A stretch of DNA of 64,000 nt from Euglena gracilis (lineage: Eukaryota): the NCBI GenBank assembly GCA_039621445.1, contig CP154954.1:21340954-21404953 (forward strand), written 5' to 3'. Position 1 is the stretch's first letter, and each line of letters starts with the position of its first letter. Both the position numbers and the translations under genes were made by a program. This document shows, piece by piece, positions 18,090 through 36,160 of this stretch. Under the pieces are notes generated by a model. That model worked only from the letters and a program-made list of their open reading frames with translations, did no database searches and had not been told where the DNA came from.

Positions 18090-18425
18090 TTGTATTATGT
18101 CAGAATGTTCTGGTCATTTGTTATTTCTTGGGGGGTTTTGAAGGGAACTTTTAAGGACACTTGAGGGAGGAGGGGAAGATCTGCCACAACCCCTTCGCTT
18201 ATCAGGTTTAATACCTCTCTTCTGACTTGACCTAACGGGGAATGCTGGCCTGCAGGGCTCTGTAAGGGGACACCCCTGTGTGTAATTTGTCTGGGGATTC
18301 CACAAGCCCCATCACTGGGGTCCTTCCCCCTGGCCTCCCCATCACCGGGGTCGTCTCTCCTCTGGCCCTGCCATAGGGCTGCTCAAATACAGGCTTTCCC
18401 CCTGTCCTTGAAAGATAGGGGAAGG

Positions 18426-18853
18426 AGTGTACGTCCAAAGCTTTTCCTTTTTCCCTTTTTTGGACTTTCTGTAAAAGCCTTTCGCTTTCGCCTTGGTGCG
18501 CAGCCTACTTATGGTAGGGAAAAGTCTTTGGAGTAACGAAAAGTGGTTTTCGCCTTTTCTTCCCAATTCCCCAAGAAGCAAAGCACAAAGCAAAGACTCA
18601 GAAGTTTCTTCTGAGATCAAGTTCGACTGTTCCGAGGGTTTTTCCCTCTGACAAAACCAATGGTCAAACTTTGGAAGAATGACAGTGAAGAATACCACCT
18701 GTGGGGGAAGGAGAGAAAAGTGCTGACGTGTCCAGGGGCAGATCCCAGAAAGGTCCGCCACGATCCTACCAGCTGTGGTTTTTCACAGTGGTGCGACCGT
18801 CACAGAACCCACTCTGCAGATATCCTACAGAGCTGGGACGTGCCTGGTACACA
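18426..18853 (-). repeat. 3' LTR (428 bp)
   Basis: Direct repeat of 34702-35113, differing by about 7 substitutions and one 16-bp indel (counted by eye). Confidence 0.93.
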
Positions 18854-18863
18854 TCCCCCTCCC
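18854..18863 (-). promoter_or_regulatory. Polypurine tract (GGGAGGGGGA)
   Basis: Purine run immediately 5' of the 3' LTR on the element strand. Confidence 0.85.
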
Positions 18864-19759
18864 AGGGCTACGCCCGATTTCCTTCACGGACCAGGGTTTC
18901 CCAGTCCAGTCAGGATATCTGACGCTGCCCCAGGTGGGGTTCACTTCTCCATTCGGTGTCTCTCCTTTCCGCACAGTGGCATCCACCCAAAGCCCAAAAA
19001 CGCGCAAAAGGTTAGCCGCGTTTCGCGGTTACCTATTAGCCGTTTCGGCTTAGGTGGGGTGTGAAAAAAGCCCACTGTGGGAAACGGGGCTTGGCAGTTT
19101 TCCTGACAAAGTGTCCCATCCACCCACTTTGGGTGTGCCAAAGGCACGCGGGGTTGGTCAAGCGATTCGCTGAAAACCCGAGGGGAGAGGTGTGGAAGGG
19201 AGGGGCAGGCTCCTATCCTGGTCATACCCGGATAGGGGTCCTAGGCGGTCATATCCGCACTAGGAAACAAAAGCGTACTTACAAAACCGACTGCCGGCGA
19301 CAGCTTTGCGGGGGTGGGGGGAACGTAGGGAGGAGAGGGGGGGCTGGCTTAGGCCAGAACAGAATTTTTGCTGTCTGGCAGCCTTAGGCGGCCTTATTGG
19401 CCGAAAAGTGACAAGTTGGCCTATTATTACGGCGTGCGCGCTGTGTGCTGTGTGTCACTTAGCGGCTTGCCAGGTTTCCCGGCCGCCAAGGTCTTCACAG
19501 CAGTAGCTCCTTCACGACGCAATAAGAGGCGATTACCTCTTGCAGACAGTTTCCGTCCGCGTGGCCATTGATAGAGGGGTGGTGGCGGGGGGGGGGGGGG
19601 CTCTTGGATGCATCCATCCAGAGCGCAGAGTGTGTGACACAGACCCAGGTTCATCCCAGGGCTGTTTAGCGATTTCCGATATATATATGTATAGTATATG
19701 GATGTCCAGGCTCCATGAAGGCACTTACCTTACATGAGCCTGGTAATGCCGTTTCGGCA

Positions 19760-22700
19760 TTACATCCGTTCCAGCCGCCAATAATCATGGCGGAAGTCCA
19801 AGGGATCTTCCACAAGGACCATCTGGAATTGTGGTGGTGGTGGCCTATCTACGAGCCAGGTTTCTGGCGATTCGTATTCGAAATCAGGCGCCACCCAGTC
19901 CCGAACCCATCCTTCGGGGACTGTGTGCTTGGTTGCACTCGCTCTTTCCGCGAGGAACCATTGCAGCTTCTCCCAGAATTTCCTGGGCAGAGTGGCTGGC
20001 CAGATGAAGTGATTCATCAGTGGGTGATTGACTGACACCTGCGGGGCATTCCCCGGGTGGAAGTCAATCGGCATGTGATACGCACATTCTGCGCGGACTG
20101 TATGGGGTCGTAATACGGCCCCAAGCCAGTCTTTCCAGGTCATCCCGTGGTCTTTGGGTGGCCATTGTGGCAGACACCAGCGACCGTTTTGGTCCTGGGT
20201 TGTGAACAGGCGGAAAAATATCTTTTCCCTGTCCGCTGTCTCCCAGAGGTCAGGTAATCTTACCTCTGCCTCCTCGGCAGCAAGGCGTATCGCCCAACTG
20301 TCGATCTGCCACCCACGGGCCATTCCCGTGTGGCGGTAGTCGTCAAGCTTGAGGTTGGAGTACTTGAAAAAATCTTGTACTTTTTGTGCAAGGTGGAGTC
20401 TTCCTCCAGTGGCTTCTGGGCACTTGGCACGATTGTGCGAACTGCGCCTTCCGCAGTTTGCCAGAAGGTACCTCGAAGGCAATTGACGCAGAGTATCGGT
20501 ACATTCGTACCGTCTCGCTCGGTGTAGCTAAAATTGTGCTTGTGGGTCCAACTGTCCACGCACTTGGCGCATACCAAGGCGGCACAGTTGGGGATGTATG
20601 CATCCTTGTGGAACGATTTTCGATCCACAGGGTTGCACACATGGACGAGGGGTAATCCCAGGTCAGGTGCACTGTTATACATCTTGTGGCATACAGTTCA
20701 AAGCCACACAAAACGGTTTTCCGTTGTTTTGTCGATGAGGAATTCCTCACCGAAGTATCGGGCCAAAACACGGGGGGATCTGGAATTATAATAATTCCAG
20801 GTCACGTTCTGATCAAAGGACCATTTTCGGCCCTGACAGAACAGTGGCTCAATCCACCGGTTGAGGCATTGCTGTGTCCTCGGTTTGTGGTCGATCATCA
20901 TGTACCTGTTTTTCAGGTCATGAATCTCAGGATCATCCTGATTGACCGCGTTCCAGTCGATGATAACTTCGTCTTCCGAAGGTGTCTCGGCTGGTGAGGA
21001 TTTTCCCTGCCCCTTTGACGAAGGTTTCGGCTGTGAGGTTTTCCCATAGCCGGATGATGTGACGTGCGTGAATCCTTGTCCCGAGGTTGATCCCCGAGAA
21101 GAGGATGCAGCACTCTGGCCGCCAGCACCACCACCGCCTTTCGGTGGGGGCTGATCACCAGATTTCGGTGTGGGCTTACAAGGTGCGGCGCCCGGCTTTG
21201 ATTTTGCCGGGGCCTTAGGACTTCCGGTTTCCGGAGCATCCGAGGGCCGCCGATCGGCGTCACGCTTGCTTGCCCAGGTGCGTGGTGACGCTTGGGACGG
21301 GGGTCTTCTCCCCGACACCGAGCGTCGTTGACCTTCGGCAGGGGTTTCCCGAGCTGAGGGTCGTCCTACGCGTTCCTTCGCGGCTTCCGTGGGTTTCCCA
21401 GGGGCAGCCGTGGGGGATGGTGTGGGTGTAGGCTTGGCTGGCGCACTTCGCGCTGGTTGAGCTTGTGGTGGGGGCATGGACGTCCGCTCAGCCTGTTTTT
21501 CAGGCGCCGGTGTCCGTGTACCCGGGTGCTTTGGTGCAGTGGCTGTGGATGTGCGCTGAGGTGCGGGTTCATCCCGTGCCTCGGCTGGCGCTACCGGTGC
21601 TGATATAGGTTTATCCTGTACTGGCACGGCTGCTGTTGTCTCCACGGCCATTGCTGTCTGTTCGCCCTCCGTCCGTGTCGATTCCGACACCGGCGGTGGC
21701 GCGCCGCTGGGGGACGTTCATCCTCCACCATGGCTGTTGTGTCAGGTGTGTATCCCGCCGGCTGTGCAGTTTCCGCCGCAGCTGTGGAAGAACTGGCCGC
21801 AGTGCCACGTGGGGTGACAACTGCGATGAGTGACCGCAAACCACCGAGTACGCGTCCGCCCAGCGAGGTGCGTCGCTCCTCACCTGAAGTGGGCTCCTAG
21901 GCTGGCTCCTCTGTTAACGGGGTTTCCCCGGGAACAGGGAGGTTGAGGCGTAATACCTCAGGCGTGTGGGGCACCGTCTCCGGCGGGTTCTCCCGCGGAG
22001 GGGTCGGTCTCCCCGGCGTACCCAGTGAGGATGGTGACGGTGGGACGGGTGTCATTTCGCCTGTCGGCGATCCTGGGCGCTGGGCAGTTTCTGCCACAGT
22101 GTCCAGCATCACGACCGATGGGCTACGGGTTTCCCGTGCCGGAGGTTCTGCTGGCTGAGGTTCATCCTCGGCCATAGGGACCTCTTCCTCCTCCTCCTCC
22201 GCTTCCGAGGGGAGTCCTCTGTGTGGAGTTGTGCTGCAGTACGCGGGTCTTTTCCGCTTCTGTAGCACCCTTGTGCATCTGACAGGCGGTAAAAGCTTAT
22301 ACTTTCACTTCTGTCAGTCTGGGGTATGGGGGCGGCCACGACGCTCTCACCCAGCTTCCGGGTGGAGGCTGCGGCTCGTCGTCGTCGATCAGGCAGAGGT
22401 CTTCCCACTGCTGTCGACAATTCTCAGTCACGCCGTAATCTCCTAGTTCTTCCAGGAAAGCGGGCAGCGGCAACGCATAACGAGGTACTTTTCCCTCGTG
22501 TGCGGCGAAAAACATCTGGAAATCTTCCCATATCAGGATATTCCCGAATTGGGTATCCAGGTGCTCCTGGAGGCCAATTTCGGCCTCTTCCCAGTCCGGT
22601 CGCAGGTTCATCCTGCGCTGGTCAGGGTCATTGGGTCTGGGCGCCACCTCGGTGTATCCCCGAGGTAACCGCCCTTCTGTGGACATCCACATCGGTGTTC

Positions 22701-25158
22701 ATGTATTCCAATATGTAGACCTCCAGGACGTAGGTAATCCACGCCCTGTGCCAGTACTGCTGCAGCAGAAATATTTTCTGCCGGTGCTGTTTCAGCACAT
22801 TTCGGTCTTGCGTTCCGAGATTGGGATTCCGGCACTGATGCAGGAGGAATCTCCTGGTCGGCTGGCTGCCGGCACTTTCGGCAGTCGGAGGCGGTTTTCC
22901 GCGTTCTCCGAAACCCCAGAAGTCAACAATGTGAACTTCTTTGCAAAACTGGCATTCCAGTTTGAACCGCTGGGGGTACGCGAGGTCCACGTCCAGTACC
23001 TTGAACAGCATGCCATACATGCTGTCCAAGAATACTTGGAGGTTGCTTGTGAACATTACCGCAGCCTGCGCCTGGAGTTTCTCCGGCAGGGGGTAGTACT
23101 TCCACTGGATTCCCAGTGCTCCCACGGAATACATGTGAGTGAAGATTTCCTTCAACTGTGCGACGAACGTTTCTCGTCTTCACAAGTATTCATACAATCA
23201 ATATACGTCAGACCGTTTCGGTCAGTAAAAATGCCGAAATTCTGGCAGGGGTATCCCAACCAGAACCAGAGCTCCCAGAAACCGGGCATCCGGTCCAGGA
23301 CAACTTCATTCGAATGAGGTTATCCCTCAAACGCATGAAGTTCGGCACCGTAGAAAAAACGTTTGCAGTGATCGTTCATACGATTCTGCACCACTTCGAG
23401 CACCGCATCCGGTGGTCGGTGGATCACGTTGCCTGCCCTTGTGAACGTTTGGAGATCCTTGTCGGTTTTCGGCCAGATCTCCTCAAGGTATTTGAACACT
23501 GAGGCAACGTCATAATCCTTCGTTTTGGAAGGTTCGGCGGCTTTTCCGCCTTTTCCTACTGGAGGTCCGGCAGATTTTCCGCCTTTGCCTGGAGTTGGCC
23601 AAGCGGCTTTTCCGCCTTTGCCAGGTGGGGCTTTTCCACCTTTCTCCTGGCCTTTTCCTTTACCCTTACCCTTGCCCTTACCTTTACCCTTACCCTTTGT
23701 GTTAGACAGCCATTCGAATGTCGCCCAGTAATCCCAGTATTCTGGGTCTTCTGGCGTAAACACAGGGTAAGTCACGGATTCTGTGCTTGGCGCTCGAGCA
23801 AATTCCTGCTCAGCGTCACCACGATTCGAGTAAACCGGTGCAACTGGGGATGGTCGGGTTTCCCGACGTGCCCGTTCTGCCGTCACGTCTGGCGCTGGCG
23901 GAGCTTCCTCCTCAGCGTCGACGTGCATCGCCGCGGGCGGTTTTTCCGACCTCGGCGAGCGGCGCTGTGGCTGCGGCGTCAGGTTTTCCGGGCCGCGGTC
24001 ACGCTTGCCGGCGGCAGAGCTTGTGGGCCGTGCTGGAGGCGCTTCCGCCACATCAACGTCCTGCTGTCGCGCTGGTTGACTTGATCGTGATGGAGCTGGG
24101 ACTCCTGTGAGAGCCGACACAGCAGCATCATACTGCTGGCGCTCTTCTCGTGTCATTTCCGCCCGGACAGGGTATCCCTGGCCGGCGGAAACAGGGGGAC
24201 GACGTGCTATTTGTCGTTGGATTGTCACAGCATATTCATACTGTTGACGCTCCTCCGAAGTCTCGAACGGCCGGCCAGTCCACGGGTTAACGGGTTCATC
24301 CCGTACCGTGGGAACTGGTGCCGCACGAGGCGCTGCCGGGGCTTCCTGTGGACGAGCGCTTCGGGCAGAGTCAGACGCCGGGGGAGGGTTTCCCTCCGCA
24401 GGACGTCTTGGGATAGGGTCAGGTATGGTTGGGTGGGGTTGAGGTGGATACACGTACTGATCCCGTGGCATTGGCGCCTCCTGGGGGTAATCCCCAGAGA
24501 CGGTGTACTGAGACACATGCTCCTGCGCAGGATAATCCCGCCGGGGCATGCGCTCAGGGGATCGAAAAATACTTTCTTTCACACGTGGGTGTTCACTCCG
24601 GACAGGTGCTTCTACTGTCTCTTCCACGAGTAATCCGGGGGAGTGAGCACGAAAATGTGCAGTGTAAGTGCCAACTGGTGGTACCTGCCGTGCTACCTGT
24701 GGCGGGACTTCCACGCCCAGGTCACGCATGGTAATGTCCGCCGCGAATCCCGACGTGTCCGGGTCGGTGTAGTACACCAGACCGGTCATCGTCGCCTGGG
24801 CGCACATACACCACAGGGCTGGAGGGGTATTCGCGATGGTCAAAACTTTACGGCAGTGGTCATCCCACAATGCCTGGGTGAGGTGGTCTGGTGCCGGGTT
24901 TGCGCTCATACGCATAACCCGGTTCATCGTCTCCGCCGTGCGGTGGATCATCACACCCGCAAACGGTGGGAGGCGACGGGAGCCTGATGGCTGGGATGGC
25001 CGCGCTTCCGCGGGCATCGAGGTCCTCCTGCTACTGCTGCTGGCTTCAGGGTTTCCCTGAGCCGCAGTCCGTGCAGGTGGCTGTGTACCGTATCGGTACG
25101 CATACTGGTCAGGTTGAGGGTGAGTGGTGGGGCGGTCCTCCGCCTGGCTCCCTTCCAC
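19760..25158 (-). pseudogene. Large accessory coding region of the LTR element (ORF pieces 23320-25158, 22628-23155, 22297-22692, 21897-22268, 20698-21690, 20260-20682, 19760-20482); function unknown
   Basis: A near-continuous chain of same-strand ORFs with protein-like composition. Trp/Tyr/Cys-rich globular blocks alternate with P/A/S/K-rich linkers. No recognised domain. Confidence 0.7.
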
Positions 25159-25330
25159 CGGGCAGCATGATACAGCCCGGGGTCGGTACGGTGGGATGTT
25201 TGGGTTGTTGGTTGTAAGGTGTGTAAGGGTAACCGCTTGAGTATTATTTGCTAAAAAGTCTGCGGAAAGAAAGAATGATAAGAATCAATGATAAAAAGAA
25301 GAGAAAACAACATGGGTTTCCCATGCGTTC

Positions 25331-25615
25331 TCAAAAACTTGTCATGGAAACATCAATGTTATGTTTCTTGTTCCACAGCTTCCGATACTGCTGGACATAC
25401 CCAACAAAACTGGTTGCTGGCTCCCAAGTGTCCTCCTCGGGCCCACACCCTTTCCAGCGGACCTTCCAAAGGTGCATACCTTTGTCGATTTTGTGATCGA
25501 TGATTTTATCGACTACAAAGTCGTCCGTCTCAGGTAATCTGGAACGGGGTTTGAAGTGCAAACACGGGATGGGTTTCCCATCCGGTGGCGACAGGTATGG
25601 TTTGAAGTCGTCCAT
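25331..25615 (-). pseudogene. Chromodomain at the integrase C-terminus
   Basis: FVVDKIIDHK...WKVRWKGCGPEEDTWEP is a classic chromodomain signature. Confidence 0.9.
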
Positions 25616-25919
25616 ATGAACGTCCTCAAAACCATTCGGTAATGCAACCTTGTAACGCCCGCTGGTACCTAGTCTTTCTAGGATTTCGCAGGGGCCGAGC
25701 CAGAGGGGGTCCAGCTTGGAAGATGCATGCGAGTACGGCTATTCCGCACCCACACGCGGTCACCGGGACTATACACAGGTGTCTTGAAATTCTACAAAGC
25801 CGATTTCCGTTTGGTTGCATGAATATCAGTCACGCGCTTCTGGACTGCAGAACGTAGATTTTCTACTTCCGCAAACCAGCTGACACTTGTTCGGTCGGGT
25901 CTCTCCGAACGGACATCCC

Positions 25920-28200
25920 CTATGGCCGGAGGGTCCCGTCCGAAACTAATTTATAGGGGGAGTGTGGTAAAACCAACCCTGGTAGGGTATTGATATAAAA
26001 CAAAGACCATGGTAGAACTGATATCCAGTTGCTGCGTGGGTCAGCCAGTGAAAGGCGAAGCATATTCACGACGGATTTCACGGCTGCCTCGGCTCTACCA
26101 TTGCCTTTGGGTCGGTATATAATGGAAAAATGTTGCTCGATTCCGAGAAAACCGCATAAAGTGGTGAAAAACCTTGAAGAAATCAAATGGTCTTGATGAC
26201 TCACGATTTCATTCGGTAAACCCATTAAGCAAATGCATTTCTCCAAAAATATAGTTGCCAAACTTTGGGCAGTCAACCCTGACTTCTGGCATGGAATGGC
26301 TACAATGTACCCACTCAGCCTGCAGACGACCACAAAAACGTAATCGTAAATTTTGTCGTCCGTTCCTTTGCACGGTTCTAATTCTAGTAAATCCATGCAG
26401 AGGGATGTAAAAATGTCAGGGGGTACGGGGAAAAAGTCCATCGTACCAGGGGGGGTACCTCTGCTGGGTTTTACCACTTGACAAATTTGACACCGTTGCG
26501 CTATTCGCAAACAGCGTGAGTAAAGCTCTTTCTCGCTCAGGGTTGTGCAATACCTGCGGCCCACCAACGAAAGAAGTTTGGGGGCCCCAGGGTGACCATG
26601 GTTGTGATAACACAAAATCACATCATCAACCAGGTCCTGGGGGATACAATATTTGTAACCCGACTCATTGCGAAAAACCAACCGTAAAGGTGAAAGAGTG
26701 TAATTGTCCAGCACTTCGCCATTACGAAGTCTGGTGACAATGGTGTCATACACCGGGTCACGACTATAATCCCATTCGCGAAAGAACAGTGGGGAAGGGG
26801 ACTCCGTGCGTGTGATACGCCGTGGTCCGGACGTGCTTCCACGTCGGCGCCTTCCGCGCACTGGTGCGATCAGGAATATTTGTGAAACGGGAAAGGAATC
26901 CAAAAGATTATCCGCAGCGTCGTTTCGACGTGCGTACTCGTCAGCTTCCTGACTTCCATGAAAAGTCGCGTCTCCTTCATCCGGGTTCCCAGGGTAATAC
27001 CAAGGGACCCGACTGAGCGGATCCGCTACTTTTTGTGTGTGACCAGGGGTATAAATAACCACAAGGTTGAATTGACTCAAGAACTCATGCCATCTGCATC
27101 GCCTTCCGACCGATGACATGGCCTTCTCATGGTCGGTCTTGACGAGGATCTGGACGAGGCTGCTGGCTACCCAGCTTCGGAATTTCTGGAGTATAAGCAC
27201 GATTGCGTAGGTTTCCTTCTCGCGTATACTCCACTTGACGTGACCTTTTCCATCATCGCCCTGTAACTTTCTGCTGAAGAAAGCCACAGGTCGGAGCTCA
27301 TTCGCCGCGTTATGCTGGCTAAGAACTCCGCCAACAGCGTAATCGCTGCTGTCGACTTCCAGGACATATGGTTTGTACGGGTCCGCGATTTCGAGGACAA
27401 CATTCTCCAAAAGCAAAACCTTGATTTTCTCAAGGGCCTCGCGCATTTGGTCATCCCAAATGACTTTGGTGTTGTCAACAGCCCGGTTTTTGAGCTGTTT
27501 GGTGAGGGGCACCGTGATTTTCGCGAAGTCCTTCATATATATCGCGTAGTATTGGGCTAATCCCAAAAATCCTTTGAGGTGAGTAATCGTTTTGATTACC
27601 TCAGGGGTCCATTTCTTAATGGCTTCGAGTTTACTGGGAGCGGCTTTCCGCTGTCCATTGCTGAGGATGTGACCGCAAAATTTTATGAGTATCCGAAACA
27701 AATGCATTTTCGCGCCTTTCGCGAAAAGCACATGTTTTTGAAAAGCGGTTAATACCGTGCAAACATGGTGGAAATGTGTGACGAGGATATCCTCGCTCGA
27801 TTTTGCGGATGGAGGTGGCGTTCCCACCAGCACATCATCAATGTACACAATGGCAAACGGTAAATCGCGTAGAACCCATTGTATCATGCGCTGAAACATG
27901 GCTGAGCCATTCTTAACACCCATGGGGAGTACCGTCCATTGGTACACACCCTTGGATGTCACGAATGCCGTGTATGGTTGTGAGTCAGGGTGCAAGTGCA
28001 TTTGGTGAAAACCGTCCTCCAGAAAATTGACCACAACCGTTTTTCCGATTGTTTGGTGATCAAGTCCTCGATCAGGGGGAGCGGGAAGGGATCATCCCTT
28101 GTTTGGGAGTTCAGGTACCGGTAATCCAGCACCAGTCTCCATTTCTTCTGACCTGAGGGGTCTGGGGGTTTAGGAACAGCAAATGCTTGGGATGTCTACT
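25920..28200 (-). pseudogene. pol: Pol: reverse transcriptase, RNase H, integrase
   Basis: WRLVLDYRYLN, LPMGVKNG, YIDD; DSSDYAVGGVL..PVAFFSRKL..EKETYAI; HHCC (HNHGHPG..CQICQ); integrase MD..(H in place of the second D)..GRAE. In-frame stop at 28196-28198 and a frameshift near 28030. Confidence 0.93.
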
Positions 28201-29965
28201 CACTTTTCGAGGGTACGATCCAATTGCGCTGAATAAGCTTCTCAATCATTTCATTGAGAGCTTGTTCGCGTTCTCCCGAACATCGAAAAAATTTTCGGTG
28301 CATTGGTTTAGCTCCTTCCTTAACCTCGATCTTACAAACACCGAACGGACCGCGTATCGCGGGGTCGATGTCGCACGCGTATACTGCATTTTCCAGCACA
28401 CCGTGAAATTCGCGGGTAATCCGCGAACAGAATTCGGCTGACTTAGGATGCTGACCTGCACTCTCGATGACTGCGGAAACCACCAGGGTATCCCTGGGGC
28501 TACCGAGCTTCCTCGGCACCGCGAATTCAGACATTCCGAACGCATCGAAGAAACATACGCGAAAAATGATTTCTTGCAAGGGTGGTAATATTTTACCACA
28601 AAAATCCTCACAAATCGGTATATTGGTGGGTAAATCCCACCAATAAAAACATACATACGATAGTTGTGTGAACCATTCCGCTTCCGGAATGATGGGTATG
28701 AGAATAACTGCACGGGCTTCATCCCGCAGAATTTTCTCAACCGCACATCCGATAAGTTTTGGGGGAGGGTGCATCCATAACACCGTATCACCCCAAAATT
28801 TATCAAATGCGTTGGAGTGTTGTGACCAATGACGTGGCAAACGGGCATGTGCATTTGATGAAAAGGCATCGATTTCTAATGCCAAATCAAAAGAATCAGC
28901 CAATGTCGCGATTTTGGAAAACCATCGTTCCAAAATGCGATATTGACCAAAATTGAAAGCATTCCATACGCGTTTCGCGTATTCATGCACCCGATTTCCG
29001 GGTTGGAGTGAAGAAACACAATGAATGGATCCACAAACATGCGGGTTGTCTTCCACTACCTCAAGGGGTAATCCCAAGGGAGTTTGGACAGGTTGGGGGT
29101 TTCCCCATTCCGCATCGAATCCGTACAAAGTGTGATCGCGATTGTAATTAGGAATGACGCTTTTCGCGTTTCCGAACAACGAGGCGAATCCGCGTTTTTG
29201 GAGTACTCGGTGTATCTCCGCGCATTGCGGGCTACAAACAAGTCTATCCTGGGGTATGGATTCCGTTTTCGGAATTACGATTAGTGTCGGATTTTGAACT
29301 AAACATCCACAATCGAAATCCGATTGGGTGGAAATTCTCCTGTAGTGCACACATTGGAAGGAAGTGTAGTGGTGTGACGGATGTGCGTGTAAGTGGGTGT
29401 CGATGGCATTAGCCGGTGAGTCTTGTACAGGTGTGCCTGGATTCGGCACAACTGGTGGGAAACGGAGTGGTGGTGCGGCTGGGCGACTACTCGACACCGA
29501 TATATCTTCAGGCCTTTGGGCTTTCGTCTTGTAACCCAGTGAAACGGCGGGGGTACCGCTACTCGCTTGCCCTGCCTCATGTGGAACGCATGTTGGTGTG
29601 TCATTGGGCAGGGGGGAGGCTTTCTCCGTACCCCGGGTGTGGAAAACGGTTGTTGGTGTGGTGGATAACGGTGTTGCCATTGTGTGTAACGGTGTTGGAA
29701 AAGTGGTGGTCATCATGGCGGATGCCAACGGTGATGGTGGTTTGGGTGTCAATGAAGTGGTGGGTGCTGTGCGCAAACCGTGGAAGTGGCAATCCACAAC
29801 CAATCGGTACTGGCGTAAAAATGGGTATCCCAAAATTACGTCAGACCTGTGAATTCCGGACTCGTAACCCCAAATATTGGTGAAATGTTGTAATTGTTGG
29901 GGTTGTGAGTGATGCTTCGGAATGATGGGCAAGAGTATCTCGAGCACATCCCAAATCACCACCAC
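28196..29965 (-). CDS. Pol segment between protease and RT containing a Thr/Pro linker, a Cys/His-rich block and a Dam-like methyltransferase-like domain (~28540-28960)
   Basis: Starts with the protease C-terminus (DVILGYPFL) and ends in the RT N-terminus (CKIEVKEGAKP..WIVPSKSE). Contains EIDAFSSNAHARLPRHW..AFDKFWGDTVLWMHPPPKLI..VEKI..AVILIP..W. Confidence 0.8.
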   Translation of the reverse strand: MVVIWDVLEILLPIIPKHHSQPQQLQHFTNIWGYESGIHRSDVILGYPFLRQYRLVVDCHFHGLRTAPTTSLTPKPPSPLASAMMTTTFPTPLHTMATPLSTTPTTVFHTRGTEKASPLPNDTPTCVPHEAGQASSGTPAVSLGYKTKAQRPEDISVSSSRPAAPPLRFPPVVPNPGTPVQDSPANAIDTHLHAHPSHHYTSFQCVHYRRISTQSDFDCGCLVQNPTLIVIPKTESIPQDRLVCSPQCAEIHRVLQKRGFASLFGNAKSVIPNYNRDHTLYGFDAEWGNPQPVQTPLGLPLEVVEDNPHVCGSIHCVSSLQPGNRVHEYAKRVWNAFNFGQYRILERWFSKIATLADSFDLALEIDAFSSNAHARLPRHWSQHSNAFDKFWGDTVLWMHPPPKLIGCAVEKILRDEARAVILIPIIPEAEWFTQLSYVCFYWWDLPTNIPICEDFCGKILPPLQEIIFRVCFFDAFGMSEFAVPRKLGSPRDTLVVSAVIESAGQHPKSAEFCSRITREFHGVLENAVYACDIDPAIRGPFGVCKIEVKEGAKPMHRKFFRCSGEREQALNEMIEKLIQRNWIVPSKSE

Positions 29966-30335
29966 ACATGGGGGTGTTATCCGCGGTTGTAATTTTGATC
30001 GGTTTCTTGGCGCTTACCAAGAGCGAGGTTGGTATCAACCCCAACCGAAAGAGCAGTGCAATGCGACAACCAGTGTCAATGAGAATTTTAACTTTGGTGG
30101 AGATATTTTGGATGCGGATTTCCGCTTGGACAAGTAATTCCATTGGTGGTACGCAAAGTGAAGGGTCTGGCGGAAATACGTTTGCATGCCAGCTCTCCCA
30201 TGAACCCTTTCCTACTTTGCTCAGCATTCCGAGCGGAAATGTGGAGTGGGGGGTAGGGGACCTGAAATAATTCCGGGTACTGACCGTGAAGGCGGATGGG
30301 CAGGGGGGGTAAGGTTGATCAGGTCTTACCTCCAT
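29841..30335 (-). pseudogene. Retropepsin aspartic protease (frameshifted)
   Basis: KILIDTGC active-site motif followed by IKITTADN. Confidence 0.85.
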
Positions 30336-30599
30336 CTGTTCATCAGCCCAGAGGTCCGTGCCCTCGGACCTCGGGCTCCCCTACTCCAAGTCCGAACCGG
30401 CCGCATAGCCGGCAACGGACTTTTTGGTGGAATAGATGGAATTCAATGAGCGCACCGCCATTCGGGCCTCATTAAATTCCCCGTCCGAGGTCTCATCCCC
30501 CTCCCTGCCCGAAGCCGGGGTGTCCTCCTCCAAACAAGAAATCTTGAATCCGACCTTTTTCCGGTTGGAGGAGTAACCACGGTCATCGCGGCGCTTACC

Positions 30600-31780
30600 G
30601 CGATTTCCGTAGCCGGGCCGGGGGGAACGAGATCTGGGACATTTGGATGAGTGGTGGTCTTTGGAACCGCAAAGTGAACAACGGGATTTGTGGCGGGATT
30701 CCGCATAACGGGGGGAACGGTTTTCCGTTCTTCCATCAAACCGTCGTGGTGAACGGGTTTCTTGTCGACCATGACCGGTGTACCGGGGTTTCCCCGGTGA
30801 CTCGCGCGAAGAGGATGATCCACTTCGCGAACAAGATCATGAAGACTCGCGATTGAAATCCCGTTTTCGGGTAGGGGGTCCAGGTGACCGACCGCGAGGA
30901 GGACGGATTTCCCGACCATCACGCGATGGTGACTTGGGCCTACTACCGCTAAAGCGGTTCTCCGAAGAACGTGAAACTCCCGATTGTCGTGAAAACGCCG
31001 AGGAACCCGATCCCCGTGAGGAGGTCGAGCCCCTTGGGCTTCCAATACGCTTTCGCGCATCGGGATTCGGGCATTCCCGAGACATGTGACCAGATTTGTT
31101 GCACAAAAAACACAGTTTATCCGTGCCTTGGTCCGAAGAACGCTGATTCCGCGTTTTCGGTCCCGTGGTCGGTGATCTTGGTGACATGGGTGATTTTTGC
31201 AACGCATTAACCGCACCTGCAGGGATTCCCGCGGTGGGATGCGTTTGGAAAGCGGACTGTATTTGTCCCAAAACTTGTGTGAGCTTGAGTTGCTTTGACA
31301 CATAATTCCAACGTTGGACAAGAGTCATTTCATGCCCTGCCAACTCCTCGCGATGGATATCCTTCACGAGGGATGGTGAGAAATGCAACAAAACCGCATC
31401 GAATTGTTCGCGCATTTGCTTCTCGCTAAGTTCATGAACTTCGGAAGCAAGTGCTAACCATTTGGCATACCAAAGTCAATGGATTTCCATTTGCGATCGG
31501 ATGGCGCGGATTGTCGCCATTTCTTCTCCAGGGTAATCCTGGTGACCAGGCTTGAGTTGGTTGAAGCGTATTGCTCAACCAGGTCATCGAATGATACGCC
31601 ATTACGTATCACCAAATTGCGTGCGCGTTCTCGCTCCTCCCTCGGTAGGCAATCGATGAATTCCATCTTGACTACCTCGGGATTCGGGTCTTGGGTGGGT
31701 CCCTTTAGTGCCCAGTAGTACTCCCAGTCCCGAAAAAATTGTCTCCGTGTGGTTGGATCCCCGTCCCATTGGGGCTTCAC
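30600..31780 (-). pseudogene. gag: Gag with two CCHC zinc knuckles (split ORFs)
   Basis: PQWDGDP..FFRDWE capsid-like start; CFLCNKSGHMSREC (~31071-31112) and CSLCGSKDHHSSKC (~30639-30680); R/S/G-rich nucleocapsid region. Confidence 0.8.
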
Positions 31781-34491
31781 CTTATTCGCGATTGTGATGG
31801 TGCCCTTGAAGTCTCTCTGAGTAACCCGCTGACCCTCGGTGGTATTCCAGGGGTTTGGGTAATTCTTAACACCAACACGTTTTGCGGATTTTCCGCTCCA
31901 CGTGAACCACGTGCAGGATTTCCCGCACCAAGTGTAGGGGTGGCAGGATTTTCCTGCGGGAATTGCGAAAAATGCGGTGAAATTCTCCCGGTGGGGCGGG
32001 TTTCCCGCCGAAAACCCGACGGGTGGTCTGGTAATCCAGAACCCGTTGGTGGTTGGTATGATCGCGAATGCGACACATGACCAATACCAGGTGTGGGGTG
32101 TTGGCTCATTCCTCGTACAAGGTTGGAATGTTGAATTTCTTGGTGGAGACTGGAATTTTCGAGCGGGGGATCAATTTCCTCATCGGAAATGTGTTGTGAA
32201 AAGTTGGTTTGTGGTGTGGGCAAATGCAAAGGTGGTACAATTCGCGTTTTCGCAGGTGGTTGTACCAAATTCGCGGTGGATGTAGGGATTCCTACTCCAG
32301 AAAGGGTAATTTGAGAACGCGATTCCGGGACATTTGGAATACCAACCGCAGCGCTTACCGCGGTGGGTGGTGGCACAACCGGTATCGGAGTGGACATTTT
32401 ATCCAAACTCGCGGACAAGTCATGCACCGTTTCTTCCAAATGTTCCACCAACTGGAGCTGGCCGCAAATACGGTCAACCTCAGTCTCCAAATGCCTAACG
32501 TGTTTGCGGTAACGGGAAAAATCGTCCAAGTGTGGTAACTTTTCAGAAGCCAAGTGTAAATCTTGGACAAGTTGTCCCTGGGACTCCTCCACATTCCGGA
32601 GTTGACCCGCAAGCGCTTTTACTGCATTTGAGACAATTTGCAATTGGTGGGGTGAATTGGTGGGGGTTTCCGCGGTGGTGCGCGAATTTTCCGCGGTTGG
32701 CTTTTCCAACAACGCAGAAATTCGTCCATCCAACCGTGAAACCTCATCTTGCATGGATCGGGCATTCCGATTCACAGATTCCTCAAGTTGAATCAAACTC
32801 GTGCAAAATGCTTGCAAGGTTTCCTTGTTGTCACCAAACATTTTGTTATAAAATGAGCGCAATTCCGGTGACTCGGATATCCGAGCGTGCGAGATATTGG
32901 GAAGTGCGCGAATTTCCGCTACTGTGGTGGACAACAAGGTGCAACGGGTTTGTAATTCCCCAATAGCGGCTTGAATACCACTAATGTCGGGAATTCGCTT
33001 GGAAAGTGCGGAAACATGCTCCTGCAAACCGACAACGGTGGCATTAATACCGCCAATGTCCGTTTGTGATTGTTGTTGCGCAATCCAACTGTTGTGCGCA
33101 ATCCGCGATTTTCGCGTGCAGGGTGGTTAATCAATCCTGATTTGCGGCACAATGGCAGGATTTTTGCTCCAAGTGTAAAATTCGTTTCTCCAAAAGCTGA
33201 ATTTGCGTACGGGGAACAAAATTTTCTTGCACTTTCGCTTGAAATTGCTTCAAATGCTCGATTTCCGAGCAAAAATGCAAAATCCGTTGTTGGGCTTCTT
33301 GGAAAGAAGTAGTGAGTGTGGCAAAATGCTCAACCGCAACAAAGTTACCGATTTCCGGCATTTTGGGGGTGGCATTTTGCGCTTGTAACTGGTGCTGCAA
33401 TTGCAGTAGCATGGTTGAACATGCTTCCACTTTGGCAAAAAGATGGCTCATACCATCTTGCACCTGCAGAAACTTGGAATCATTCCGCGTTTCCGCTTCA
33501 TGCAGTGTTTCACTGATTAGTTGGAAGTTTTGTGGAAGTTGGATGCGCAAAATACTGTCAACACTTTCCCGAAAATGCTGAAGGTCTTTCCCCGCATTTT
33601 CAAAATTGTGTTGGCAATATTTGCCGATTTCCTGCAAATAATTCCAGCAATATTCCAGTTTGGTGTTGACAACCCTTTGATTGTCCTCATCAAACTGCAA
33701 AACATTGTTGAGCATGGTTGCGCATTCCGCAACACATTGGTGGACATGCAAAATTTGCTTGCTCAGCGGGTGATCCGCTGGGAGTTGACCGAGAATTCGG
33801 TAAACATCACCGGGGGTGAGGTTAACCCTCAAATCTTCCTCATAGTCCTCCACAATGGAAACGGCACCAGAGATTTCCGGCACCACCAGACGCATATCTG
33901 GGTTCCATGGCAAAGCAGGGAAAACCGCAGTTTCCGCGGGTAATCCCGGCAATGCGCGAAATGGTGTGGGGGGTGGAAATTGAGGGGGGGGTAGGAAAAA
34001 ACACGGTGTTTCCACCGAGTTGCACTCCAAAAGGCCCACCGGTGCTTCCACCGGGGATCTTTTGGGTGTGGACAGAGCAAAGGGCAAATATCCCTCACTT
34101 TGTTCATGGGTAACATGAGTAACCAAGTGTGAAGGTGCAAGGGGTTCATCCCTCGTCACATCAATGATGGGTGAACCGGGATGAAGGAAGGCATTTTGCC
34201 ACCTACATCCCGCACAATCAATGACAATGATGATGAAGAGGGATCATTACCCCCATGCAACAATAAAGGCGTTTCGCCTTTTGACAATGACAAATGAATC
34301 AAATTGCCTTCTTCTTGCTTGGGGGGTCGGGAATTGGAACTTGTTTCATTTGAACCGTTCCAATCCCCGCAATATTCATCAAAATTGTTCAATGAACTCA
34401 TCAACAAGTCATAATCAAATTTGGGGTTGGAGCTTGTGCTCTGCATCTTTTGAGATGGGTAAAAAGGCAAAAAACCCAAAAATTCACACAA
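31777..34491 (-). pseudogene. Coiled-coil-rich ORFs upstream of gag (31777-33027, 33131-34159, 34156-34491): extra ORF or long Gag N-terminal extension
   Basis: Long ORFs with heptad-like L/E/Q patterns on the element strand, between the PBS and gag. Confidence 0.65.
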
Positions 34492-34690
34492 ATAAGCAGA
34501 GAAACAGGGACCAGAAATGTTGTATCGGCGATTACCGAACAGAGCCTTCTGAGACCTGTATTCTTACTTAAAGGTTGGCTTGGGGCCAGGAACAGTACTT
34601 TCACCGTGTTTCACGGCTCAGTACGATCCTCACCACCAGTCAACCACAGATTTTCTCTGTGTGGAACGTCTGTGTGGGATCGTTGCCTAA

Positions 34691-34701
34691 CTCTGCTACC
34701 A
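34691..34701 (-). promoter_or_regulatory. Primer-binding site TGGTAGCAGAG (initiator tRNA-Met)
   Basis: Directly follows the 5' LTR and is complementary to the ...CUCUGCUACCA 3' end typical of eukaryotic tRNA-iMet. Confidence 0.85.
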
Positions 34702-35113
34702 AGTGTACGTCCAAAGCTTTCCCTTTTCCCCTTTTTTGGACTTTCTGTAAAAGCCTTTCGCTTTCGCCTTGGTGCACAGCCTACTTATGGTAGGGAAAAG
34801 TCTTTGGAGTAACGAAAAGTGGTTTTCCCCTTTTCTTCCCAATTCCCCAAGAAGCAAAGCACAAAGCAAAGACTCAGAAGTTTCTTCTGAGATCAAGTTC
34901 GACTGTTCCGAGGGTTTTTCCTGTCAAACTTTGGAAGAATGACAGTGAAGAATACCACCTGTGGGGGAAGGAGAGAAAAGTGCTGACGTGTCCAGGGGCA
35001 GATCCCAGAAGGGTCTGCCACGATCCTACCAGCTGTGGTTTTCCACAGTGGTGCGACCGTCACAGAACCCACTCTGCAGATATCCTACAGAGCTGGGACG
35101 TGCCTGGTACACA
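34702..35113 (-). repeat. 5' LTR (412 bp)
   Basis: Direct repeat of 18426-18853, adjacent to the PBS. Confidence 0.93.
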
Positions 35114-36160
35114 GAAGGTCTGTGTCTGCAGTTGGGAGGTACATACATGGCTGAGAGTGTGGGCTTATTACCTTCTGGCGGGGCCCTGTTGTAGCCAATC
35201 TTGGGCCTCCCCCCCAAGAGCAGATGTGGTCTTGAATGCACCCTCCACTTGCCTTTAAACTTTGAATCATACATTGGCCTCCAATGGCCTCCTGATTTGA
35301 TTGAAATGGCCTCCATTGGCCTTGATAGCTTGGTGCTTCCCCTGGCCTCCACTGGTTTTGAATATAATGGCCTCCGTTGGCCTTCTGTCCTTGAAGGGGG
35401 GGCTGCTTGCTGCGAGGATGGGCAGCTCCTGAGGGGTTTATGTTTGAGAGAGCTGTGGGGTAAGTTGGACATGCCTTTCCCCAGTGGGATACTTCCAGGC
35501 TGGGATACAGGCTGCCATAGCCTTGCACGTGGGCCCTCTGCCCTCCTGGATGATGGCTGTAATAGCTTTGATTCTGGGCCCCAGGCCCTGTTGAGTGATG
35601 GCTGCAATAGCCTTGATTTTGACTTGAATCCCTTGGATTTCCGATATTTCTTTAAAGGCTGCCATAGCCCTTGCTTTTTCCCCTGGAAGGGGGGAACTGA
35701 GAAAAAGGGGTGGAGTCTGTTGGACCTGTGATGGTACTCCCCCTCTGTCTTCTTGTCTTCCTGACCGCAGTTGTCCATGGTCCACGGCCATCATGTTGAG
35801 TGGGAGGGTTTGAAGTCTTTGATGTGGTGGCGGGTGGGGGGTTGCGACGGCCACGGACTGACGTGCTGCTGCCGCCCCATCAGCTTCTGCAGCTGCTGCT
35901 GTGCCTCCACCTTCCCCAGCTTCAGCTGCTTTCTTGGAAGTTCTTTGAAGTTCTTCTTGGCAGTCTGAATTTCTTCGAAGCTCATTCTTCATGGAAGTCC
36001 AGTTGTGACCTTTGTCTTTGTAATTGTAATACTTCTGGAATAATTCCAGTTGAACTCGAAGAGTTGAATTCCTCCTCCTTGAAGTCGAAGATGACCAAAA
36101 AAGTTTGATCCACCAGTTGATACAATTGACGGTCTTCGGTGAATGCAGTACACCTTGATA
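35114..36160 (-). mobile_element. DIRS element A, 5' part (gag-like, low-complexity ORF)
   Basis: Removing the LTR element and one TSD joins ORF 35026-35778 in frame to 18342-18425 (..CRHRPS|PIFQGQG..). Confidence 0.7.

Follow-up and report, generated by a model that had tools for sequence, protein, structure and literature searches.

The 64,000-nucleotide stretch of Euglena gracilis contig CP154954.1 analysed here (assembly GCA_039621445.1, forward-strand positions 21,340,954 to 21,404,953; hereafter the window, with positions in it prefixed w) contains a single long terminal repeat (LTR) retrotransposon on the minus strand at w18426-35113. This single insertion is very probably a decayed member of a high-copy Ty3/gypsy-type, chromodomain-bearing family of the 'DAM-LTR' kind, which carries a Dam-like domain inside pol and, in addition, two further conserved coding regions.

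Structure and gene order

The two direct repeats lie 16.3 kb apart and differ by 7 substitutions over 412 aligned bases (98.3% identity, Kimura two-parameter distance 0.017) and by one 16-nt indel; identity by blastn, with the gap included, is 94.4%. Immediately outside both LTRs stands the same 5-bp target-site duplication (TSD), GAAGG on the plus strand, and the 15.8-kb internal region is bordered by a primer binding site and by the polypurine tract GGGAGGGGGA before the 3' LTR, the structural features of Ty3/gypsy elements (Metaviridae). The primer site TGGTAGCAGAG is taken here to match the 3' end of initiator tRNA-Met; a tRNA gene search of the 64-kb window found none. The target duplication, polypurine tract and roughly 98% identical LTRs named in the initial annotation were thus all recovered, and its reading of one insertion that moved as a unit agrees with the single target duplication, the LTR identity and the lack of a nested LTR pair or inverted-repeat element inside. 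The LTRs start with TG and end with CT rather than the usual CA, within an imperfect 7-nt terminal inverted repeat (TGTGTAC ... GTACACT).

Read along the minus strand, coiled-coil open reading frames (ORFs) come first, followed by gag with two CCHC knuckles, protease (PR), the Dam-like domain, reverse transcriptase (RT), RNase H, integrase (IN), a chromodomain and finally a 3' coding region of approximately 5.5 kb (Table 1). In a frame map, near-gapless coding-looking frames run from w34563 to w19763 and occupy about 14.8 kb of the internal region, interrupted by some fifteen frame changes or stops. The long accessory and pol frames are all on the minus strand, and frames on the plus strand do not exceed 278 codons. 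The plus-strand frame of that length (w22481-23317), which lies opposite the 3' accessory region, probably arises from the composition of the frames on the sense strand.

Pfam matches comprise the two CCHC knuckles, a weak Dam match (PF05869), RVT_1 with the YIDD motif, two RNase H models, integrase H2C2, rve, SH3_Tf2-1 and Chromo. The protease has no Pfam match; its LIDTG motif is present and aligns with the protease of relatives. These matches and motifs reproduce the domain order given in the initial annotation; the frames, however, are broken many times. As in chromoviruses with a C-terminal chromodomain, PF00385 (44.6 bits, cut-off 25.1) follows SH3_Tf2-1, and the RT profile matches the Ty3 RT structures 4ol8 (E 6e-13) and 7q5b (E 3e-12). 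The chromodomain of this copy has Cys after WKG, at a position presumably belonging to the aromatic cage, where the intact relative described below has Tyr.

A word-index search with the PR-to-RT part returned five proteins, and from their clusters came P0011, an intact 1,677-residue polyprotein of PR, Dam-like domain, RT, RNase H, IN, SH3 and chromodomain. The pol order PR-RT-RNase H-IN of the window, typical of Ty3/gypsy, is collinear with it. In the RT-IN and chromodomain parts the window is 69-71% identical to P0011, and in PR and the Dam-like domain 41%. As pol ends a few residues past the chromodomain in both the window and P0011, the coding sequence downstream is a separate gene and not an extension of pol.

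Compared with P0011, the pol of the window has four frameshifts (near w29945, w28040, w25950 and w25710) and two stops, and its RNase H lacks 11 residues. In the RT-IN part a TAG replaces a conserved W at w28196-28198 and the frameshift falls at approximately w28022-28055, while the integrase C-terminal part has the last two frameshifts and one in-frame stop. The nucleocapsid part of gag, with its CCHC knuckles at w31071-31112 and w30639-30680, has in-frame stops of its own (TGA w30837-30839, TAG w30381-30383), and the gag frame changes near w31474. Over the whole element, comparison with relatives reveals six frameshifts, three premature stops and the 11-residue deletion, to which two further in-frame stops in gag are added. 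Since every gene is broken by frameshifts or stops, this copy is unable to move by itself: it is dead.

Table 1 Features of the retrotransposon in the window, and sites at which other copies carry extra bases (fractions are depth in run X1)
Feature	Position	Strand	Details
TSD beside 5' LTR	35114..35118		GAAGG on plus strand, CCTTC on minus strand
5' LTR	34702..35113	-	412 bp; begins TGTGTAC, ends GTACACT
Primer binding site TGGTAGCAGAG	34691..34701	-	adjoins 5' LTR directly
ORF1	31780..34563	-	frame pieces w34159-34563, w33134-34243, w31780-33126
gag-like region	30384..32170	-	capsid-like piece w31457-32170, then nucleocapsid
Protease, N-terminal half	29844..30380	-	LIDTG w30069-30083; other frame after frameshift near w29945
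Dam-like (class I methyltransferase-like) domain	28517..28969	-	between PR and RT
RT-RNase H-integrase (H2C2, rve core)	25923..28313	-	YIDD w27834-27845
Integrase C-terminal part, SH3_Tf2-1, chromodomain	25334..25959	-	chromodomain w25415-25522
3' accessory region, first piece	23323..25284	-	654-codon open frame, proline/alanine-rich; first ATG w25017
3' accessory region, middle pieces	21900..23179	-	three frames (183, 133, 135 codons); status uncertain; covered by contigs of both DNA runs
3' accessory region, C-terminal part	19763..21717	-	disordered stretch, Cys/His-rich module w20479-20700, C-terminal domain
Polypurine tract GGGAGGGGGA	18854..18863	-	adjoins 3' LTR directly
3' LTR	18426..18853	-	428 bp
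TSD beside 3' LTR	18421..18425		GAAGG on plus strand
Extra bases CA	29944		108,633/401,987
Extra base G	31474		107,564/415,752
Extra base A	25942		133,160/590,275
Extra base C	25723		54,503/128,728
Extra base C	20373		57,616/149,842
Extra base G	22206		33,346/94,227

Accessory coding regions and the family in sequencing runs

ORF1, some 880 codons long, separates the primer site from the capsid-like part of gag; it has a first ATG at w34446, two coiled-coil blocks in its middle and last pieces, and proline-rich linkers. It matches the coiled-coil family NPV_P10 at 35.6 bits (cut-off 29.8) and many other coiled-coil families weakly. The sole homologue found, P0014, is an unbroken protein of 348 residues from a 1.2-kb contig, labelled 'chromosome segregation ATPase' in one source, with a weaker NPV_P10 match at the corresponding place. 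It is 55% identical to the end of the first coiled-coil ORF and 61% identical to the start of the second; as P0014 runs through both without a break, they represent one conserved gene that is broken in the window near w33130. A language-model search with the first coiled-coil ORF gave no lead (best 0.82). Perhaps the coiled-coil protein would act as an oligomerising scaffold or as an extension of Gag.

The 3' accessory region extends for up to about 1,800 codons past pol and ends in a Cys/His-rich module and a C-terminal domain. Its first piece contains a (KG)8 run at w23650-23697 and matched no Pfam family at E<=5 apart from one chance-level row (0.076). In the C-terminal part, a 339-codon piece passes through a TGA (w20698-20700) into the Cys/His stretch, and the last frame of 255 codons follows after a frameshift near w20373 and stops at TAA w19760-19762. 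When 250 residues surrounding the Cys/His stretch were searched by phmmer against 1.84 billion representatives, five relatives were retrieved (E 1.6e-40, 8e-19, 1e-17, 5e-7 and 5e-4; 48-30% identity), the best of which, P0006, is a Euglena gracilis transcript (EukProt). The TGA of the window aligns with the first Cys of a C-x2-C-H motif that is present in all five. Two of them, P0007 and P0009, continue into the last frame of the window (pairwise E 1e-7 and 4e-5), which locates a frameshift at about w20373, the site of an extra C in other copies. Hence, the two large accessory coding regions proposed in the initial annotation are indeed conserved coding sequence, ORF1 by its likeness to P0014 and the 3' region by the five relatives of its C-terminal module.

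No Pfam family was found for the Cys/His piece of the window or for P0006-P0010, a PDB profile search with the alignment of the module gave one chance-level row (E 0.26), and none of 578 candidates from a word-index search with the last frame passed. In a language-model search, P0009 resembled RING clusters at 0.84-0.85, short of the 0.9 line, which makes the RING-type likeness a lead only. An AlphaFold2 model of the protein family (P0009 and six further rows) had a mean predicted local distance difference test score (pLDDT) of 40.4, too poor for a fold search. An envelope-like reading of the 3' region was considered and rejected, since none of 13 accessory and gag pieces contains a membrane-like segment (19-residue mean Kyte-Doolittle value above 1.6). 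The 3' region is therefore not an envelope gene. Its product may be soluble, may bind zinc and may serve as an accessory protein translated from a separate message.

All or part of the pol stretch was found in 20 of the 24 runs listed, with at least half of the sampled words in 14. Four runs were mapped on w17200-36400 at a likeness of at least 90%, which gave 141,525 contigs in run X1 and 116,551 in run X3, and in both DNA runs contigs reached each of the 30 bins. The parts of the element cannot be ranked by summed contig depth and no copy numbers are drawn from it; single variant sites are, however, carried by tens of distinct contigs, and the family must therefore be present in very many copies. 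In the DNA runs, a great number of contig variants fall on the flanks (w17200-18420 and w35119-36400) as well, and the element thus evidently sits inside other repeats. Long frames in the flanks (w16767-18113 and w35029-36767) matched no Pfam family, and 20 frames in all, the three flank frames and 17 of at least 220 codons in w1-17000 and w36800-64000, matched no transposon or other family at E<=0.001 except for one low-complexity proline-rich row. When the flanks were rejoined as an empty site, the longest frame across them was 251 codons, 27 of them on the far side, which does not indicate a target.

At six sites other copies carry extra bases, which make up between roughly one and two fifths of the depth (Table 1). 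Their number fits the frame change at w29944, w25942, w25723 and w20373, where the window is broken relative to its relatives, and at w31474, where the change is seen in the frame map only. This indicates that part of the family keeps these frames open, and as the state found in the window is also common in the family, it is not simply an assembly error. In each of the two DNA runs, one contig connects w18854, the base adjoining the 3' LTR on its inner side, to w34168 in the leader across 23 intervening letters of other sequence, which suggests internally deleted derivatives that consist of the LTRs, the leader and little else.

RNA-labelled contigs cover the element at 90-99% likeness. One of them runs from the 5' LTR into ORF1 (w32703-34881) and another from the chromodomain into the 3' region (w25170-26100). 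As RNA libraries may hold DNA, these contigs are weak evidence of expression, and the contiguity of the regions in other copies is well supported by them. No spliced-leader joints were seen among the loose ends listed for the RNA contigs. In run X17, a leaf-litter metatranscriptome, 426 contigs fell on the stretch, 56 of them at 99% or more, so that the library must have contained this organism or a very close one, or nucleic acid from it.

The Dam-like domain and its supposed catalytic pocket

The piece of the window between PR and RT matches PF05869 at E 2.4e-4 (21.2 bits), under the curated cut-off of 28.1, and the five aligned clade members all match it at E<=0.01 (best 1.9e-4), again below the cut-off. 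An AlphaFold2 model from a five-row alignment has a mean pLDDT of 49, with values of 60-82 over residues 100-245, which correspond to the domain. A fold scan against 48,161 PDB representatives gave a putative RNA methyltransferase as the best match (Z 8.6), and nearly all of the 50 matches listed are class I methyltransferases, many of them adenine-N6 enzymes, and include a cap adenosine methyltransferase (7.9), METTL5 (7.2), T4 Dam (6.4), E. coli Dam (6.2) and TaqI (6.2), together with KsgA/Erm enzymes. Since a Z of 7-8 is typically reached by models without a clear match, it is the uniformity of this list and not the score that is weighed. Foldseek comparison of the model with the PDB placed a cap adenosine methyltransferase and KsgA best, at E 1e-3 and weaker, and none passed E<=0.001.

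The canonical tetrad of N6-adenine methyltransferases has the form (Asp/Asn/Ser)-Pro-Pro-(Tyr/Phe/Trp). At the motif IV position of the window (LWMHPPP, w28760-28780) it reads HPPP, and the other clade members read NPHY (P0001), HPMF (P0002 and P0011), NPPV (P0003 and P0004) and HPPV (P0013). The canonical tetrad, which an active enzyme of this type would be expected to have, is therefore found in none of seven members, and Asn-Pro-Pro is kept in two. P0004 and P0013 belong to the same 90% cluster, yet differ in Asn or His at this position. The neighbouring motifs DAFSS (w28856-28870 in the window), YWSxHSxAF, EKIxR and PxWxxxxWF are well kept. From these few sequences, selection in this clade may have acted for something other than methyl transfer. 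Given that the tetrad is not kept, it is proposed that the domain would bind, instead of transferring methyl groups.

Alternatively, the domain could be an active adenine methyltransferase that places N6-methyladenine (6mA) on the cDNA or DNA of the element, a mark that would lead the host to keep new copies in open chromatin. The main text of a preprint (bioRxiv 10.64898/2026.05.21.726589, May 2026) describes Dam-type domains in LTR retrotransposons across eukaryotes, with a conserved Asn-Pro-Pro pocket and an aromatic residue, proposes that they help to place 6mA and reports more 6mA on DAM-LTR copies, including those of E. gracilis. The predicted methyltransferase-like fold and the retention of the domain in the intact P0011 would also speak for activity. 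Yet P0011 itself reads HPMF, and the pocket that is kept over the eukaryotic family is kept in two of seven members here. According to the same preprint, the domains lack the first catalytic subdomain and no 6mA was gained in E. coli. Moreover, the difference between 41% identity over the PR-Dam part and 69-71% over RT-IN indicates a looser constraint on the former. An active enzyme is accordingly unlikely in this clade, though by no means negligible, and the DNA-modification 'writer' put forward in the initial annotation is doubtful, with HPPP in this copy, non-canonical tetrads in 7/7 members and a preprint that saw no activity in E. coli.

No cytosine methyltransferase was found: PF00145 was matched neither by 17 sense-strand ORFs (E<=0.01) nor by 11 pieces (E<=5), with frames of at least 100 codons scanned. 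A metagenome scan with the Dam-RT alignment yielded one distant locus from 113 pattern matches, which belongs to another kind of element, and a scan of viral contigs confirmed none of 245 pattern matches. The metagenome locus (L001:1-4464, plus strand) has an open gypsy-type pol of 1,488 codons in which no Dam match is present; a C5 cytosine methyltransferase match (PF00145, 22.5 bits, cut-off 22) falls after RNase H and before integrase.

A probable single family among known elements

The accessory regions might have a separate origin from the core, in which case the element would be a composite: an ordinary Dam-bearing chromovirus-type core with captured host fragments or remains of other elements as cargo. 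Capture of ORFs downstream of pol is documented for LTR retrotransposons in PMC6431247, and nested insertions and chimeras are suspected in E. gracilis in the main text of bioRxiv 10.64898/2026.05.21.726589. As for the 3' module, its relatives are predicted proteins that stand alone on short contigs, and the middle of the 3' region (w21900-23179) has no family, the relatives having been compared for the C-terminal module. Against such a composite, neither an LTR pair nor inverted repeats nor further target duplications were found inside the element, its long accessory frames are all on the strand of pol (the longest plus-strand frame having 278 codons), and very many contig variants cover both accessory regions. 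Protein identities of 30-61% among relatives imply long selection on the proteins, and the RNA-labelled contig from chromodomain to 3' region links the two in another copy. A composite is thus very unlikely.

Inside the element no other direct repeat of at least 100 nt and no terminal inverted repeats were found, only two short palindromes, and there is no second copy elsewhere in the 64-kb window. A nested element was also considered and rejected, as neither an inner LTR pair nor terminal inverted repeats are present. That separate elements were mis-joined during assembly of a repeat-rich region is scarcely credible, even though the family is extremely repetitive and more than half of the genome is repeats as reported in PMC11252322, because the 5-bp duplications match, the LTRs, primer site and polypurine tract are in the right places, pol is collinear with P0011, and independent contigs bridge the junctions from LTR to ORF1 and from chromodomain to 3' region.

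A single family architecture is therefore the best reading, given the lack of inner repeats or another copy, the contig bridges and the conservation of both extra regions. Several points weigh against the overall interpretation of the element. The Pfam Dam matches are all below the cut-off, the fold scores are within the range of unrelated models and Foldseek gave no match at E<=0.001, while the tetrad is read from seven sequences, some of them decayed. The co-occurrence of ORF1 and the 3' region with pol in other copies is taken from contig bridges, not from full-length copies. The accessory relatives come from contigs of 1.1-2.1 kb and might be host genes captured by the element, and any function of either accessory region is a proposal only. 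In intact members of the single family, reverse transcription would be primed by tRNA inside Gag particles and integration would be steered by the chromodomain.

The initial annotation had taken the family to be possibly undescribed, which does not stand, as LTR elements of E. gracilis with a Dam domain and a chromodomain are already reported in bioRxiv 10.64898/2026.05.21.726589. Its main text describes chromodomain-bearing elements that form a Euglena gracilis group, some of which also encode a cytosine methyltransferase ('EpiLTRs'). The element shares with this group the Ty3/gypsy type, a putative PF05869-like domain inside pol and the chromodomain at the integrase end. In contrast, the main text mentions no coiled-coil gene before gag, no long gene after pol and no element length, and the Asn-Pro-Pro pocket that it describes as conserved is retained in 2/7 members of this clade. 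As an 'EpiLTR' combines Dam, cytosine methyltransferase and chromodomain, the element of the window, without a PF00145 match, is not one of them. In a search of full-text literature, this preprint was the only paper to join Euglena, chromodomain and retrotransposon, and in a search on Euglena gypsy elements and accessory ORFs no other paper on Euglena elements was found by title among the matches listed.

Other retrotransposons resemble the element in part. DIRS1-type elements have the same Dam-like domain family and are the source of the domain of LTR elements according to bioRxiv 10.64898/2026.05.21.726589; they differ in their tyrosine recombinase and split or inverted repeats, whereas the integrase here is of the DDE type and the element has LTRs and a 5-bp duplication. 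Ogre and Retand/Tat-type gypsy elements are non-chromovirus plant lineages with often very long LTRs (1.9-6.5 kb in Ogre) compared with 0.4 kb here. As given in PMC6431247, the internal sequence of Ogre is 11-13 kb with one or two extra ORFs and that of Burro, a giant gypsy-like element of planarians, reaches 25 kb and includes Smc-like and RING-type motifs, which places the 15.8-kb internal region between the two. Burro, also of gypsy type, recalls the combination of coiled-coil ORF and Cys/His module in the window, a likeness by kind of motif only. It encodes, as described there, one polyprotein of approximately 4,900 residues with an env-like part, while here the extra regions lie outside pol and have no membrane segment.

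The core design is already known, and possible novelty lies in the pair of conserved accessory genes, in how large the internal region is and in the catalytic pocket, which is non-canonical in this clade. According to PMC11252322, between one fifth and one third of the 2.37-Gb Euglena gracilis genome consists of LTR elements, and this family is among the very abundant ones. It illustrates that short LTRs can enclose about 15.8 kb in such methyltransferase-bearing elements, with which two further conserved proteins travel. The elements might even represent a euglenid three-gene retrovirus-like lineage with working accessory genes, the 3' one expressed from its own, perhaps spliced-leader trans-spliced, message, and with a non-catalytic Dam-like binding module, although this combination appears distinctly unlikely at present. 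That the supposed catalytic pocket is not kept in this clade bears directly on the proposal that such elements write 6mA in order to stay in open chromatin. If the Dam-like module is indeed non-catalytic, the advantage of 'DAM-LTR' elements in this host would not come from writing 6mA.

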